DNA of 53,817 bases from Candidatus Aenigmatarchaeota archaeon (lineage in GTDB: Archaea; Aenigmatarchaeota; Aenigmatarchaeia; CG10238-14; SCSR01). The translations under genes were made by a program, and so were the position numbers. Where the stretch lies: the NCBI GenBank assembly GCA_030017875.1, contig JASEGQ010000001.1, forward strand, positions 1 to 53,817, read 5' to 3'. The notes under the pieces were generated by a model. The model saw only the letters and a list, made by a program, of their open reading frames with translations. It was not told the origin of the DNA and made no database searches. Positions 20,858-50,160 of the stretch are shown here, one piece after another. Position 1 is the stretch's first letter, and each line of letters begins with the position of its first letter.

Positions 20858-21892
20858 TTATTTCCTTTTGATCCATTTTCTTCCAACTTTTTGATACATA
20901 GCTAACCATTTGTGAATTGCTTCCTGTCCACGCCCATATTTTTGTTTCACTTTTATAGCATCTATAAGCTTTTCTTGTTTACGCTTTATGCTGAAACCTA
21001 TATTTCTTGCAAATTTTATTGTATCGGGAAACCTATCGATAGTTAGTCTCCAAGCATCTTTTGTAGTCCTAGTTATATGCCCTTTAGATATACGGACAGT
21101 ACCTGCTCTAACATTTATTGGTATGTTGCTTTTTATGTTAAAATGATTTTTTAATAAGTTTTGTACATATTTTAAAATTGCACGATTAGTATTACACGCA
21201 ACAATGACCCTTACATCAAAACGACCCCTTCCCCTATCTTTGTAAATGGTTACATTAGGTGAACCTTCGCTATCTGCAAAACCTTGAATGAACTCCTTAG
21301 GAAAATTTTCTATAAATAGCCTTAAATAACTAAGCTGTTTTTTCAGAAAATTACAGAGAAGTTTACATCCAATCCAAACATAAGGCAGTCCATTTGACTC
21401 ACGAATTGGGCAAGTTTTCTCCAAAATCTTTGTCATACAATGAGCGAATTTTTCAACAAACTCCCTATCAATTGAAGTTAAGTGAATGTATCCTGTTTTA
21501 GTAGCACTCCCATCTCCAAATGCCACTCCGATAACATAGCTAATCTCCTTACTTATTTTTGGTGTAAAGAGAGTAAAATGAGAGGATGGATTAACTCCTT
21601 TGTGAATCCAATTTTCAACTGTGTTAGGATTTAGGTTTAATGCTTTTCCTATACGTACTTTGCCCCAAGCAAATTTTTGATGAAGTCGCAAGGCTTTTCT
21701 GTGCAAATTTATTCGTTCTTGGATTGGTATGTCTCTTGATTTTCTAGTAGGATATCCATTTATATCTTTTGCAGTTTTTTGTGAGTCCAATCCCAATTCC
21801 TTATGAAATTTCATAGCTTTCTTGTGTATTTGTATTCTTTTCTCTAAAGACAACTCACGAAGTTTTTGAATTTTTACTTCTTTCTTTTTCAT
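20858..21892 (-). CDS. Free-standing double-motif LAGLIDADG protein fused to N-terminal helix-turn-helix repeats
   Basis: Two LAGLIDADG motifs with acidic residues retained (YVIGVAFGDGSA, FIQGFADSEGSP). The N-terminal about 110 aa hold repeated RIxxHxKAxxxH units and the HTH IGKALNLNPNTVENWIHKG. ATG 21892 follows GGTGA, and GTG 21901 is an alternative. Confidence 0.8.
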   Translation of the reverse strand: MKKKEVKIQKLRELSLEKRIQIHKKAMKFHKELGLDSQKTAKDINGYPTRKSRDIPIQERINLHRKALRLHQKFAWGKVRIGKALNLNPNTVENWIHKGVNPSSHFTLFTPKISKEISYVIGVAFGDGSATKTGYIHLTSIDREFVEKFAHCMTKILEKTCPIRESNGLPYVWIGCKLLCNFLKKQLSYLRLFIENFPKEFIQGFADSEGSPNVTIYKDRGRGRFDVRVIVACNTNRAILKYVQNLLKNHFNIKSNIPINVRAGTVRISKGHITRTTKDAWRLTIDRFPDTIKFARNIGFSIKRKQEKLIDAIKVKQKYGRGQEAIHKWLAMYQKVGRKWIKRK

Positions 21893-21934
21893 TTTCACCA
21901 CTTTTTTATTTTGTAGACAATTGTGTTATGATGC

Positions 21935-40740: not shown

Positions 40741-41511
40741 TTAGTCTTTATATCTTTGGATGAAGCCGGGGAACAATTGATCAAATCTTTTCGATTCCTC
40801 CAAACACCCTATTAACTGTTTTCGCTTGGTAAGATTGGTAAAAGAGATGACAGATAGGAACTTTTTAAGATTTTTCAAATTTGATATAGTAAAACCAAGA
40901 TTTATACCGTTTACAGTCTTGCCCATTTCTACAACTTTCGATGGTCTGATACCTAGTTCTAAAAGCATCTTTCTAACATCTTCTAAGAACCTAACATGGT
41001 TATTGATAAACTTAGCACATTTACTCATATTGATTCCAATCATTCTTTGCGTACTACTTGATGGACGAATAAATTTTATTTTGATCCAACCTTCATCATC
41101 AAATACTGCTCTTATAAAAGCGATTTTTATTTCTTTCGATCCGTTCATCACCCATTCTGGAACTCTAAATGGCAAGAATACTTTTTCTCCGAGTGGTCCA
41201 CCAGCTAATGAAATTAACCTAGCTATATTGGTAGGAAACTCTATTTCCCATCCACCACTTTTTTTGAACTCTTTTGGTATTATGTTAGTAGAAAATGCTG
41301 CATTTACATTCGCCGTGACTTCGTCTACCAACTCTCTAGATTGGTTAAAGAAACTAAATTGCCTTTCAGTTAGGCTTCCGTCCCCAATGCAGTGGCCTAT
41401 TACAGATGCCAACTCAGGGGAAGCAACTATAGGAAATTTAATCTTTATTCTCCTTTTTCTATTTCTTGTTTTCAGTTCTATTATATGCTTCTCTATTTTA
41501 TTCAAGGTCAC
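40741..41511 (-). CDS. Free-standing double-motif LAGLIDADG protein
   Basis: LASVIGHCIGDGSL and FIRAVFDDEGWI are two LAGLIDADG motifs with acidic residues retained. GTG start at 41511 overlaps the upstream HTH ORF by 14 nt. Confidence 0.8.
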   Translation of the reverse strand: MTLNKIEKHIIELKTRNRKRRIKIKFPIVASPELASVIGHCIGDGSLTERQFSFFNQSRELVDEVTANVNAAFSTNIIPKEFKKSGGWEIEFPTNIARLISLAGGPLGEKVFLPFRVPEWVMNGSKEIKIAFIRAVFDDEGWIKIKFIRPSSSTQRMIGINMSKCAKFINNHVRFLEDVRKMLLELGIRPSKVVEMGKTVNGINLGFTISNLKNLKKFLSVISFTNLTKRKQLIGCLEESKRFDQLFPGFIQRYKD

Positions 41512-42243: not shown

Positions 42244-42591
42244 CTACAATTTTAATCCTTTTATTGTTCCTGAAACCTTTAATATTTTGAATATGACTCT
42301 CGTATCGCCTAAGCGTGAAATCAAGCCTAAGCAAGAGATTACTTGCGAAACAGATTTGTTATTACACCTAACCACACCAATCTGTCTTTCAATATCATAA
42401 AGGCTTTTAATCACATACATACTCATTTTACTAACTCCATGCTCACCAAAAAAGTCAAGTGCAACGTTCCATATTGCTTGTTCGATGTCCTCGTATACTA
42501 CAGGCTCTTCTGAAATTATCTTGAAAGCGATGTACCTTTCTCTTTCTCTAAGAGTAGGCAATAGAAATTTCAATTGATTTTTTCCCCTCAT
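42244..42591 (-). CDS. rnp2: RNase P protein component 2 (Pop5)
   Basis: LRERERYIAFKIISEEP...IGVVRCNNKS is a Pop5 pattern, adjacent to Rpp30. Confidence 0.8.
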   Translation of the reverse strand: MRGKNQLKFLLPTLRERERYIAFKIISEEPVVYEDIEQAIWNVALDFFGEHGVSKMSMYVIKSLYDIERQIGVVRCNNKSVSQVISCLGLISRLGDTRVIFKILKVSGTIKGLKL

Positions 42592-42640: not shown

Positions 42641-43357
42641 TCATTCTATCACTTTTACCCCAGGTATTATAAAATTTTCACTCCTCCTCTCTTTTATTTT
42701 TTTTACTATACTCTCAGGAGTTTTCGATATAGCTTCTTTTGCTTCTTTTAATTCTAAGCCCAATTGATTAGCAAATGATATTAAAACTTTCGGATCTCTT
42801 AACTCATAGTGAGATATCCCCCCTGAGCAGATTATTATTGTTGCATGATATTTTTTTGCAAGTTTTACATTGCGAGACATGTTCTTTAAAATCATACTTC
42901 TCGTCTTTTTGTTCGAAATCAGAATCTCTCTAAAATTAACTTCTATTGCAACGTTATTCTTTGCAGCAAACTTTACAGAGACATGATCTAATCCAGAATC
43001 TAATCTTTCAAACTCGGGATGGGTCAGAATATCAACTTCTGGAGTTTCACAAGCTTCTCTATTTAGCTTTAAATCCCCTCCCCTCGCAAGCAAAACGTCA
43101 AACTCCCCCCTCCTCTTTGCTAAAAATTTTAGTTCTTTAATATTTCTTGCCTCAAAACCGAGTAAGATCTCTATCCCAGCCTCCTTTTTCACTCTTTCGA
43201 TTTCAGCCTTAAGTATGCTCTCTTCTCTTTTGCTTATAGGATAAGCAGTGAAACAAATTCCTCTGTAGCCTAACTGCTTTGCCATGGATGCTAATTGCTC
43301 TAGACTTGACTCTCCGCCTGAAAAACTCGAATGAACGTGCATGTCAAAGGCTTGCAT
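42641..43357 (-). CDS. rnp3: RNase P protein component 3 (Rpp30, PHP/TIM-barrel)
   Basis: FDMHVHSSFSGGES N-terminus, about 238 aa, conserved position upstream of Pop5. Confidence 0.8.
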   Translation of the reverse strand: MQAFDMHVHSSFSGGESSLEQLASMAKQLGYRGICFTAYPISKREESILKAEIERVKKEAGIEILLGFEARNIKELKFLAKRRGEFDVLLARGGDLKLNREACETPEVDILTHPEFERLDSGLDHVSVKFAAKNNVAIEVNFREILISNKKTRSMILKNMSRNVKLAKKYHATIIICSGGISHYELRDPKVLISFANQLGLELKEAKEAISKTPESIVKKIKERRSENFIIPGVKVIE

Positions 43358-49489: not shown

Positions 49490-49801
49490 TCATCCTCGAA
49501 AAGGATACCTATAAATTCTATTGCAACTTAGACATTTTATACTAATCGTTTTTTTGCTCTTTACTCTGACTTGGGAGCTCAGCCCTGGGATTAGTAAGCT
49601 GTTGCAGTTTTTGCAGAATTTCTTTTTCTGCTCTTTTGTTAGTCTTATGTTATACCTCAGCCCAATCTTTCTTGCCAGCTCTACGTAGCGCTTAGACCTC
49701 TCCGGATGTTTTCTAAATTCTTTTTCTGCTAGGTCAAACAAAATCTGAATTCTCTCTTTCGCAATTTTTAGGTATCTGAAAGGCTTTGTTCTTATCATCA
49801 A
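49490..49801 (-). CDS. rnp4: RNase P protein component 4 (Rpp21/Rpr2)
   Basis: A helical N-half (AKERIQILFDLAEKEF...RYVELARKI) plus the zinc ribbon FCKNCNSLLIPG...CLSCN. Confidence 0.8.
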   Translation of the reverse strand: MMIRTKPFRYLKIAKERIQILFDLAEKEFRKHPERSKRYVELARKIGLRYNIRLTKEQKKKFCKNCNSLLIPGLSSQVRVKSKKTISIKCLSCNRIYRYPFRG

Positions 49802-49831
49802 ATAATAATTTTGATTTTAAAGAAAAAGAAA

Positions 49832-49940
49832 TGGGGTTGCTGGGATTTGAACCCAGATTATCAGCGCCCAAGGCTGAAGTCCTAGCCAAGTTAGACTACA
49901 ACTTCATGCCTATTGTCCCATGTTATTTTATTTCAACCCC
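49832..49940 (-). tRNA. tRNA-Pro (anticodon UGG) with an intervening sequence in the acceptor stem; no encoded CCA
   Basis: Minus strand: GGG[35 nt]GTTG TA GTCT AACTTGGCTA GGAC T TCAGC CTTGGGC GCTGA TAAT CTGGG TTCAAAT CCCAG CAACCCC A. All arms pair, and G37 follows the anticodon. Confidence 0.8.
49903..49937 (-). other. 35-nt intervening sequence between acceptor-stem positions 3 and 4 (boundary ambiguous within the duplicated GTTG)
   Basis: GGGGTTG at 49940-49934 is the exact complement of the 3' acceptor strand. The 7 nt adjacent to position 8 (GAAGTTG) pair only through GTTG. Confidence 0.5.
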
Positions 49941-49972
49941 ACAAATTCTGTTAATTCAGATAGATCTCCACT

Positions 49973-49980
49973 TATTTAAA
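49973..49980 (-). promoter_or_regulatory. TATA-box candidate (TTTAAATA on minus strand) for tRNA-Pro(UGG)
   Basis: 32 nt separate the box from G1 at 49940, which fits transcription starting just upstream of the proposed exon 1. Confidence 0.45.
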
Positions 49981-50046
49981 GCTACCCCAACTAGATGTTT
50001 TTGATTCTAATGGGGTTGCTGGGATTTGAACCCAGGATTACTAGCA

Positions 50047-50058
50047 ATTTGGTCTAAT
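50047..50058 (-). other. 12-nt canonical BHB intron at tRNA position 37/38
   Basis: CTAGC-TTGG-GG|A-TTAGA-CCAA-AT|T-GCTAG: the anticodon stem is the outer helix, TTGG/CCAA is the 4-bp central helix, and the two 3-nt bulges are GGA and ATT. Confidence 0.75.
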
Positions 50059-50095
50059 CCCCAAGCTAGTGTCTTAGACCAAGCTAGACCACAAC

Positions 50096-50124
50096 TTAGC
50101 GTTAATATCCCGCCTTTATACAAC
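50096..50124 (-). other. 29-nt intervening sequence between acceptor-stem positions 3 and 4 (boundary ambiguous within the duplicated GTTG)
   Basis: GGGGTTG at 50127-50121 complements the 3' strand CAACCCC. The adjacent TAAGTTG pairs only through GTTG. Confidence 0.5.
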
Positions 50125-50160
50125 CCCAGCCATATTATATTTGATTAGAGGTCACAAAAT

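Follow-up and report, generated by a model that had tools for sequence, protein, structure and literature searches.

Short introns predicted at position 3/4 of two tandem tRNA-Pro genes in a Candidatus Aenigmatarchaeota archaeon

Two tandem tRNA-Pro genes with interrupted 5′ acceptor strands

We analyzed a 53,817-nt stretch of archaeal DNA with a G+C content of ~37% (Candidatus Aenigmatarchaeota archaeon, assembly GCA_030017875.1, contig JASEGQ010000001.1, positions 1 to 53,817; hereafter the window), which carries on its minus strand a tandem pair of tRNA-Pro genes with the anticodons UGG and GGG (Table 1). Both genes end in the 3′ acceptor strand CAACCCC (49839-49833 in tRNA-Pro(UGG), with discriminator A at 49832, and 50018-50012 in tRNA-Pro(GGG), with discriminator A at 50011), and the 7 nt directly 5′ of position 8 are GAAGTTG (49905-49899) and TAAGTTG (50098-50092), which leaves positions 1-3 mismatched. 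The exact complement of the 3′ strand, GGGGTTG, lies 35 and 29 nt further upstream, and we refer to it below as the distal copy. A sequence-only reading of the window had drawn attention to this arrangement, and its coordinates hold on the minus strand; it had also placed a TATA-like box ~32–33 nt before each distal GGGG, and the boxes that we located, TTTAAATA for tRNA-Pro(UGG) and ATTTAAAA for tRNA-Pro(GGG), both end 32 nt before it. The typical archaeal distance from TATA box to start site puts the predicted start of tRNA-Pro(UGG) transcription ~6–10 nt 5′ of its distal copy.

An exact look-up of the HerA-like protein of the window returned no match with that start; a near-identical ATPase protein (P0002) led to a second locus, L199, in the Logan assembly of SRR23186779. 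The tRNA region of this independent assembly is identical to that of the window, and the displaced acceptor bases are therefore not an assembly error. On unspliced DNA, ARAGORN placed tRNA-Pro(tgg) at 49831-49906 and, at 50011-50098, a tRNA to which it gave no assignment, and the Rfam tRNA model scored the two genes at 51.4 and 38.7 bits, respectively, the match to tRNA-Pro(GGG) beginning only at model position 4.

Table 1. Features of the tRNA-Pro locus and RNase P protein genes of the window; exon and intron boundaries at position 3/4 are predictions
Feature	Position	Strand	Basis or remark
HerA-like ATPase gene	start 50168	+	one flank of the tRNA-Pro pair
tRNA-Pro(GGG): TATA-like box ATTTAAAA	50160..50167	-	abuts the HerA-like gene start, in opposite orientation
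tRNA-Pro(GGG): distal GGGGTTG, leader	50121..50127	-	10 nt 3′ of the conserved AATCAAATA block
tRNA-Pro(GGG): leader spacer TATAAAGGC	50112..50120	-	UAUAA pairs with nt 5-9, one-base offset
tRNA-Pro(GGG): proposed true 5′ exon, G1-G3	50109..50111	-	GGCG/CGCU, 3 Watson-Crick pairs and 1 G.U
tRNA-Pro(GGG): putative 13-nt intron AUAUUAACGCUAA, position 3/4	50096..50108	-	BHB-motif comparison
tRNA-Pro(GGG): middle exon, G4 to G37	50059..50095	-	sequence, Rfam, ARAGORN
tRNA-Pro(GGG): 12-nt canonical 37/38 intron AUUAGACCAAAU	50047..50058	-	ARAGORN on the 5′-spliced sequence; read from the sequence
tRNA-Pro(GGG): 3′ exon, U38 to A73	50011..50046	-	sequence, ARAGORN
tRNA-Pro(UGG): TATA-like box TTTAAATA	49973..49980	-	read from the sequence; spacing as in intron-less relatives
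tRNA-Pro(UGG): distal GGGGTTG, 5′ leader	49934..49940	-	exact complement of the 3′ acceptor strand; at the ancestral 5′-end position
tRNA-Pro(UGG): leader spacer AAATAAAATAACAT	49920..49933	-	AUAA (-7..-4) pairs with tRNA nt 5-8 (helix h)
tRNA-Pro(UGG): proposed true 5′ exon, G1-G3	49917..49919	-	CAUG/CAUG, all 4 pairs Watson-Crick; cloverleaf perfect once spliced in silico
tRNA-Pro(UGG): putative 14-nt intron ACAAUAGGCAUGAA, position 3/4	49903..49916	-	H 3′ strand CAUG, bulge 2 (AA↓G)
tRNA-Pro(UGG): 3′ exon, G4 to discriminator A73	49832..49902	-	CCA not encoded; T-run follows
Rpp21 (RNase P subunit gene)	49490-49801	-	other flank of the tRNA-Pro pair
Rpp30 (RNase P subunit gene)	42641-43357	-	
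Pop5/Rpp14 (RNase P subunit gene)	42244-42591	-	

A covarying splicing motif surrounds a proximal GGG

An archaeal bulge-helix-bulge (BHB) motif consists of a 4-bp central helix (H) with a 3-nt bulge on each strand, and is cut after the second base of each bulge (cuts are marked ↓ below). We found that each insert holds a GGG of its own followed by A (49919-49916 and 50111-50108), set between self-complementary 4-mers and laid out as a BHB, the 4 bases ending in G1 complementing the 4 bases before the final AA of the insert. In tRNA-Pro(UGG) (..AAUAA-CAUG-GG↓A-C-AAUAG-G-CAUG-AA↓G-UUGUA..), CAU of the spacer AAATAAAATAACAT and G1 make up the 5′ strand of H, so that G1 closes the helix and bulge 1 (GG↓A) begins with G2G3, and the intron ACAAUAGGCAUGAA includes a C-G pair closing a 5-nt loop. 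The 5′ strand of H in tRNA-Pro(GGG) (..UAUAAA-GGCG-GG↓A-U-AUUA-A-CGCU-AA↓G-UUGUG..) likewise combines GGC of the spacer TATAAAGGC with G1. The same cut rule, H(4)-NN↓N, also reproduces the canonical 12-nt intron at position 37/38 of tRNA-Pro(GGG) (UUGG-GG↓A..CCAA-AU↓U, that is, H = UUGG/CCAA with bulges GG↓A and AU↓U). That intron is itself very short and of the bulge-helix-loop (BHL) type, and the gene thus holds two introns.

Splicing in silico of 14 nt (49916-49903) and 13 nt (50108-50096) joined G3 to G4 and gave acceptor stems paired at 7 of 7 positions, and ARAGORN identified the spliced sequences as tRNA-Pro(tgg) and tRNA-Pro(ggg). Use of this program had been proposed as a check; it recognized tRNA-Pro(UGG) even unspliced, and left tRNA-Pro(GGG) unassigned until the intron was removed. 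Once spliced, the tRNA-Pro(UGG) sequence differs at 3 positions from the intron-less gene of a related locus (L127), two of them forming a compensatory 6:67 pair.

We scanned a genome collection with the shared 3′ half and metagenomes with the ATPase, which yielded ~200 loci. Four further genes there have the same layout as the two in the window, namely a tRNA-Pro(GGG) (L059), a tRNA-Pro(UGG) (L143) and two tRNA-Trp genes (L083 and L093), and we compared these six, referred to as cassette genes, with one another. The pattern of H (4 bp), GG↓A and AA↓N was present in all six. Helix H was paired at 4 of 4 positions in every gene (23 Watson-Crick pairs and one G.U), although its sequence occurs in five different versions: CAUG/CAUG, GGCG/CGCU, AGCG/CGCU, CACG/CGUG and GAGG/CCUC. 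In an alignment with fixed modules, 92.9% of the cells were paired and 8 pairs had changed on both sides (three of the four H pairs, the pair of the inner helix h′ and four pairs of the outer helix h). None of 500 shuffles reached the observed pairing or covariation score, registers slid along the sequence were ~40% paired, and RNAalifold independently predicted helices H and h from an unedited MAFFT alignment.

The flanking helices are more variable. Helix h, which pairs the leader with tRNA nt 5-8, has 4–5 bp in five genes and is offset by one base in tRNA-Pro(GGG) of the window. The length of helix h′ ranges from 4 bp in L059 through 2 bp, closed by a GNRA loop, in the two tRNA-Trp genes to a single pair in both window genes and L143; its closing pair covaries (C-G, U-A). 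If a strict motif is taken to require at least 2 bp in both h and h′, the window genes and L143 are relaxed, BHL-like variants with a 1-bp h′. The L143 gene, the most informative of the six, has the acceptor stem GGGGUCG/CGACCCC and an intron at position 4/5, where its proximal GGGG together with UCG restores exactly that strand; its helix h has changed, with covariation, to CGUCG/UGACG.

An endonuclease-type interruption at position 3/4 had been put forward in the sequence-only reading, and the motif, its covariation and the restored cloverleaf support it; the weak pairing with the far-upstream leader by which the BHB-like structure had then been drawn is superseded by the motif around the proximal GGG. 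Helix H, the covariation across six genes and the restored cloverleaves together point to a 5′ exon at 49919-49917 and 50111-50109. We therefore consider it likely that tRNA-Pro(UGG) and tRNA-Pro(GGG) each carry a short archaeal BHB intron at position 3/4, of 14 and 13 nt respectively, and that the 5′ exon is the GGG lying 14 and 13 nt upstream of G4, not part of the distal GGGGTTG.

We infer each enzymatic step of the following pathway. The primary transcript would start a few bases before the distal GGGGUUG, and the leader bases and G1 would pair with the 3′ part of the intron (H), with G2G3↓A and AA↓G4 as the 3-nt bulges and positions -7..-4 paired with nt 5-8 (h). A splicing endonuclease would then cut after G3 and before G4, an RtcB-type ligase would join the ends, RNase P would trim the whole leader including the distal GGGGUUG, and CCA would be added. 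The spliced, untrimmed intermediates expected from this pathway are ..AACAUGGG-GUUGUAG, that is, ..AAUAACAU-GGG-GUUGUAG, for tRNA-Pro(UGG) and ..AAAGGC-GGG-GUUGUGG for tRNA-Pro(GGG). The RNase P proteins Pop5, Rpp30 and Rpp21, all encoded in the window, are consistent with it.

The block is absent from the nearest relatives

The tRNA-Pro pair of the window sits between a HerA-like ATPase gene and Rpp21, with genes for ribosomal protein S19e, prefoldin, SepF, GlyRS and FEN1 beyond. Rpp21 lies immediately 3′ of tRNA-Pro(UGG), an arrangement that is kept in relatives. The related loci come from metagenome-assembled genomes (MAGs) of Aenigmatarchaeota, from MAGs labelled "uncultured archaeon" and from metagenome contigs with the same gene neighbourhood, and close ATPase homologues are labelled Candidatus Aenigmatarchaeota in their source records. 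Among these loci the tandem of Pro(GGG) and Pro(UGG), flanked by the ATPase gene and Rpp21, is widespread, and in most its 5′ strand is contiguous, reading GGGGTTG or GGGGTCG. This agrees with the earlier view that contiguous GAAGUUG and UAAGUUG are not the mature 5′ strands; it does not support the suggestion that the inserts predate the duplication of the genes, since an intron-less pair so widely distributed makes the duplication the older event.

The ATPase of locus L243 is 88% identical to that of L143 and the promoter is nearly identical, yet L243 reads GGGGTCG contiguously where L143 reads GGGG[TTGATGACGGAGGGGACAATTGCCTCAA]TCG. The block is also absent from relatives at 80–86% identity, from the nearest relatives of the window lineage (79%) and from those of L059 (75–76%). 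Because it is absent from the nearest relatives of all three, the block behaves as a single insertion, and these comparisons suggest that the whole of it (the rest of the distal copy, the spacer, the proximal GGG and the intron; 28–42 nt) probably entered the 5′ acceptor strand in one recent event. At the DNA level its boundaries are those of the long intron of the sequence-only reading, and the RNA-processing signal lies inside it. When ~250 loci were scanned for further end-proximal BHB introns, whether accompanied by an upstream copy or not, the filtered scan added no genuine case, and every cassette had its distal copy. A scan of viral contigs with the cassette pattern gave 39 matches, all of them chance occurrences inside phage open reading frames (ORFs).

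Other tRNA genes recovered by these scans had features of their own. Orthologous tRNA-Pro genes of L120, L121, L127, L130, L135, L139, L140, L142, L143 and L243 carry introns in the D-loop, anticodon loop and T-loop in varying combinations, with up to three introns per gene in the tRNA-Pro of L143, and the clade is very intron-rich. The tRNA-Pro(GGG) of L121 contains, ~50–65 nt 5′ of the ATPase start on the reverse strand, the sequence ..TATAT-GGGGA-GGGGTCG.., in which an extra GGGG lies at the ancestral 5′-end distance, immediately in front of the tRNA proper, and may be the footprint of a lost cassette. In L071, L074, L097 and L098 (Bathyarchaeia, Micrarchaeota and Nanoarchaeota MAGs) a T-arm and a CAACCCCA 3′ end had no recognizable 5′ half within 150 nt upstream, making these candidates for split, permuted or heavily interrupted tRNA genes. 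Five Aenigmatarchaeota loci (L025, L033, L075, L096 and L115) share a conserved block, ..AAGTTTAGAAATAAAACAGTGAACTAATTCT.., ~60 nt 5′ of tRNA-Pro(CGG), which could represent a conserved promoter or leader or else the end of a different RNA gene. Many Micrarchaeota loci (among L002-L118) encode a tRNA-Trp(CCA) with a GGGGTTG acceptor and long anticodon-loop introns bearing C/D-box-like motifs (UGAUGA...CUGA); most of these genes receive a wrong label from ARAGORN, chiefly Arg(cct).

The distal copy is conserved at the ancestral 5′-end position

GGGGTTG occurs 7 times on the two strands of the window, compared with 2.44 expected. The chance of finding it on the correct strand is ~2e-5 per position, ~1e-3 in the 40-nt upstream stretch of one gene and ~1e-6 for both genes, and the upstream copies are therefore not a product of chance. 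The distal copy of tRNA-Pro(GGG) lies 10 nt past the AATCAAATA promoter block, and the tRNA 5′ end of relatives lies 7–13 nt past that block, which places the copy at the ancestral 5′-end position; the TATA spacing to the distal copy of tRNA-Pro(UGG) is likewise the same as in intron-less relatives. The copy is intact in all six cassette genes even though the surrounding sequences have diverged, and the two tRNA-Trp genes retain it at 7 of 7 positions although the leader upstream of it is unalignable.

Minimum free energy folds of all six genes paired the distal copy with the 3′ acceptor strand CAACCCC, which would otherwise lack a partner, nt 1-8 being taken up by the BHB. When the cut products were cofolded, the predicted binding was -8.7 to -12.7 kcal/mol with the distal copy and -1.8 to -6.1 kcal/mol without it, an extra contribution of ~6–8 kcal/mol. 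Most likely, the distal GGGGTTG is leader sequence that is trimmed by RNase P. On the strength of the folds, we propose tentatively that before trimming it could serve as a surrogate acceptor strand, tethering the 3-nt 5′ exon to the tRNA body until ligation.

Alternatively, processing may run exactly as set out above and the distal copy be functionless, a native 5′ acceptor strand left behind by the insertion of the block, much as integrating elements leave tRNA-fragment repeats. Its location at the ancestral 5′ end fits such a leftover, as do the apparently recent gain in L143, the lack of the cassette in the nearest relatives of every cassette lineage and a published model in which the gain of an intron leaves a 5′ tRNA fragment behind (PMC3293823). 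A mere leftover does not readily account for a copy that in six of six genes is always exactly the 7 nt able to pair with the 3′ strand while its flanks diverge, nor for L143, in which the TTG completing the copy belongs to the inserted 28 nt and the native strand is GGGGTCG; in addition, the repeats are only 9–14 nt apart, with no integrase or element remnant between them. We judge the tether and the functionless leftover about equally probable, and neither commands more than tentative belief.

A bolder proposal, which we regard as somewhat unlikely, is that the block is a self-contained mobile splicing cassette for tRNA genes beginning with GGGG. It would supply a second 5′ exon and leave the native 5′ strand in the leader, reduced to a surrogate that clamps the 3′ strand and so keeps the 3–4-nt 5′ exon attached through cleavage and ligation. 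If true, it would be a cis version of the split-tRNA splint and would explain an intron at the extreme 5′ end of a tRNA.

Two other origins or roles were considered and rejected. Tandem duplication found no support as the origin of the block, since the leader upstream of the distal copy matched the spacer at only 5 of 14 positions by eye in tRNA-Pro(UGG); and the spacer is not a C/D-box or K-turn element, UGAUGA being present in L143 only, without a D box, and both boxes being absent from the other genes.

Free-standing ORFs with a homing-endonuclease-like LAGLIDADG_3 domain were observed in the window (40741-41511 and 20858-21901, both on the minus strand), in L059 (5526-6302, plus strand), in L083 (4136-4472) and in L244 (332-1003, minus strand). 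The window ORF at 40741-41511 is homologous to that of L059 (30% identity, E 2e-18), which lies upstream of both GGGGTTG copies, with the ATPase gene on one side and the cassette-bearing tRNA-Pro(GGG) on the other; its frame runs through the distal GGGGTTG and stops in the mini-intron, and repeats of a promoter-like sequence flank it. In L244 an ORF of this kind separates the two tRNA-Pro genes and there is no cassette, and the window has the cassette and no adjacent ORF. A tie between these ORFs and mobility of the cassette is speculative.

Points against the predicted introns and remaining alternatives

Several observations weigh against the introns and processing pathway that we favour. Where the precursor is cut, where its pieces are joined and where the mature tRNA begins are all predicted. 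The covariation rests on five distinct sequences, which also served to derive the structure. In the window genes h′ is a single pair closing a 4–5-nt loop, helix h of tRNA-Pro(GGG) is out of register by a base, and in some genes the register favoured by RNAfold has a 2x2 internal loop in place of the 3-nt bulge. A Pfam scan of ~50 window ORFs, a fraction of the genome, found no EndA, RtcB or Thg1-like domain, so that neither the splicing endonuclease gene nor the ligase gene is among them. The insertion that separates L143 from L243 has the boundaries of the longer intron discussed next, which makes the distal site a possible alternative 5′ splice site, and the conservation of the distal copy could reflect the origin of the block, with the native 5′ strand left in place, and not selection.

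In the sequence-only reading the whole 35- or 29-nt insert was the intron, and nt 1-3 came from G1-G3 of the distal GGGGTTG by way of a weak BHB between the far-upstream leader with G1 and the intron's 3′ end; the spliced, untrimmed intermediate of tRNA-Pro(UGG) would then be ..UUUGUGGG-GUUGUAG. The same mature tRNA would result, the GGGG[28 nt]TCG indel matches these boundaries exactly, the distal copy stands at the ancestral 5′-end distance from the promoter, and 4 of 4 pairs can form in tRNA-Pro(UGG) of the window (two of them G.U) and in L143 at register 5/6. When every register allowed by the GTTG repeat was tried, however, the helix concerned (UGUG/CAUG and GCUG/CGCU in the window genes) formed 4 of 4 pairs in no more than two of the six genes; it does not covary, as opposed to the proximal helix, which is fully paired in all six and covaries. 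A long intron would also lack helices h and h′ and would leave the perfectly conserved proximal H1-GG↓A unexplained, and an enzyme reading the hairpin-bulge of the 3′ site would cut there too. We therefore regard it as improbable.

It is far less probable still that GAAGUUG and UAAGUUG are used as they stand, in mismatched stems, or that the genes are decaying pseudogenes, even though ARAGORN and Rfam call tRNAs on the unspliced DNA. In either case the acceptor stem would have at its top two or three mismatches, A.C or U.C (four in L143), and this in the sole Pro(UGG) and Pro(GGG) genes of a clade-conserved locus, whose sequence is identical in an independent sample and whose splicing motif is maintained by compensatory changes.

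Genomic mismatches confined to acceptor positions 1-3 are the pattern of mitochondrial tRNA 5′ editing, and 5′ editing or repair by Thg1-like enzymes occurs in amoebozoan mitochondria. The corresponding scheme for the window, in which cleavage before G4, by RNase P or some other nuclease, is followed by the rebuilding of G3-G1 on C70-C72 of the 3′ strand by a Thg1-like 3′-5′ polymerase, can be set aside as the least credible of all: the correct GGG is encoded 13–14 nt upstream within a splicing motif and needs no rebuilding, the conserved, covarying BHB, the proximal GGG and the distal copy would be unexplained, L143 would require four rebuilt bases, and no Thg1-like gene was found among the ~50 window ORFs, a weak point given how little of the genome these represent.

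Two further arrangements were rejected. A split or permuted tRNA is at odds with pieces that are collinear within 110–117 nt downstream of one TATA-like box per gene, and duplication of an attachment (att) site by a mobile element is at odds with a 7-nt direct repeat whose copies are 9–14 nt apart and with the position of the L059 LAGLIDADG ORF, upstream of both copies and not between them.

Discussion

Non-canonical BHB introns occur at many positions of archaeal tRNAs, and introns at position 3/4 have been described in Thermoproteales (Sugahara et al., 2008, cited in PMC4090602). As far as they are described in that account, the Thermoproteales introns share with those predicted here protein-dependent splicing, a 3-4-3 BHB, a place in the acceptor stem after nt 3 and the presence of other introns in the same gene; in both, the motif is built with the leader because the site is so near the 5′ end. 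The present cases differ in their host, a DPANN archaeon (Aenigmatarchaeota) and not a crenarchaeote, in an intron length of 13–20 nt and in the full upstream 7-nt copy of the acceptor strand in every example. In the literature we found no description of an acceptor-stem intron with such a full copy, the Thermoproteales 3/4 cases not being compared on this point. Judged from sequence, then, the intron itself appears to be of a known type, within an architecture that we did not find described.

The 13-nt relaxed (hBH/BHL) intron at position 59/60 of ARMAN-2 pre-tRNA-Cys, a substrate of the epsilon2 endonuclease in vitro (PMC3239211), resembles the introns of the window in its 13-nt size, in having one splice site in a loop-like context and in its DPANN host with many disrupted tRNA genes. 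It lies in the T-loop and its cleavage was shown in vitro, whereas the introns described here lie in the acceptor stem and are known from sequence alone. In the split tRNAs of Nanoarchaeum equitans, complementary leader and trailer sequences and a BHB at the leader-exon boundary (PMC4033280, PMC4090602) offer a likeness to the role proposed for the distal GGGGUUG and helix h, in that pairing of a non-tRNA flank holds the pieces and builds the BHB. Here, by contrast, all parts lie in cis on a single transcript with a single promoter, and the holding helix would involve the 3′ acceptor strand of the tRNA itself and not a G+C-rich duplex.

The tRNA-Thr of Caldiarchaeum subterraneum is a case in which an intron was gained and a 5′ tRNA fragment left over once a mobile element had integrated (PMC3293823), and as in our case presence and absence differ among close relatives. 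The Caldiarchaeum repeats flank a 1.8-kb element with a recombinase gene, whereas those described here are 9–14 nt apart, with no element between them, and the repeat is the 7-nt acceptor strand.

DPANN genomes contain many disrupted tRNA genes and endonucleases with extra loops, and their "missing" tRNAs have been attributed to undetected disrupted genes (PMC5829648); tRNAscan-SE 2.0 extends its candidates by 60 nt to catch end-proximal introns (PMC8450103). Standard tRNA finders report broken acceptor stems or no assignment for genes like those of the window, and recognizing the cassette recovers tRNA-Pro and tRNA-Trp in Aenigmatarchaeota. A 5′ exon of three bases poses the question of how it is retained for ligation, and the upstream copy of the acceptor strand provides a hypothesis that is testable by mutation. 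The clean 28-nt difference between L143 and L243, together with the patchy spread of the block over Pro(UGG), Pro(GGG) and Trp genes with a GGGGTTG acceptor, would make this a recent case of tRNA intron gain in archaea.

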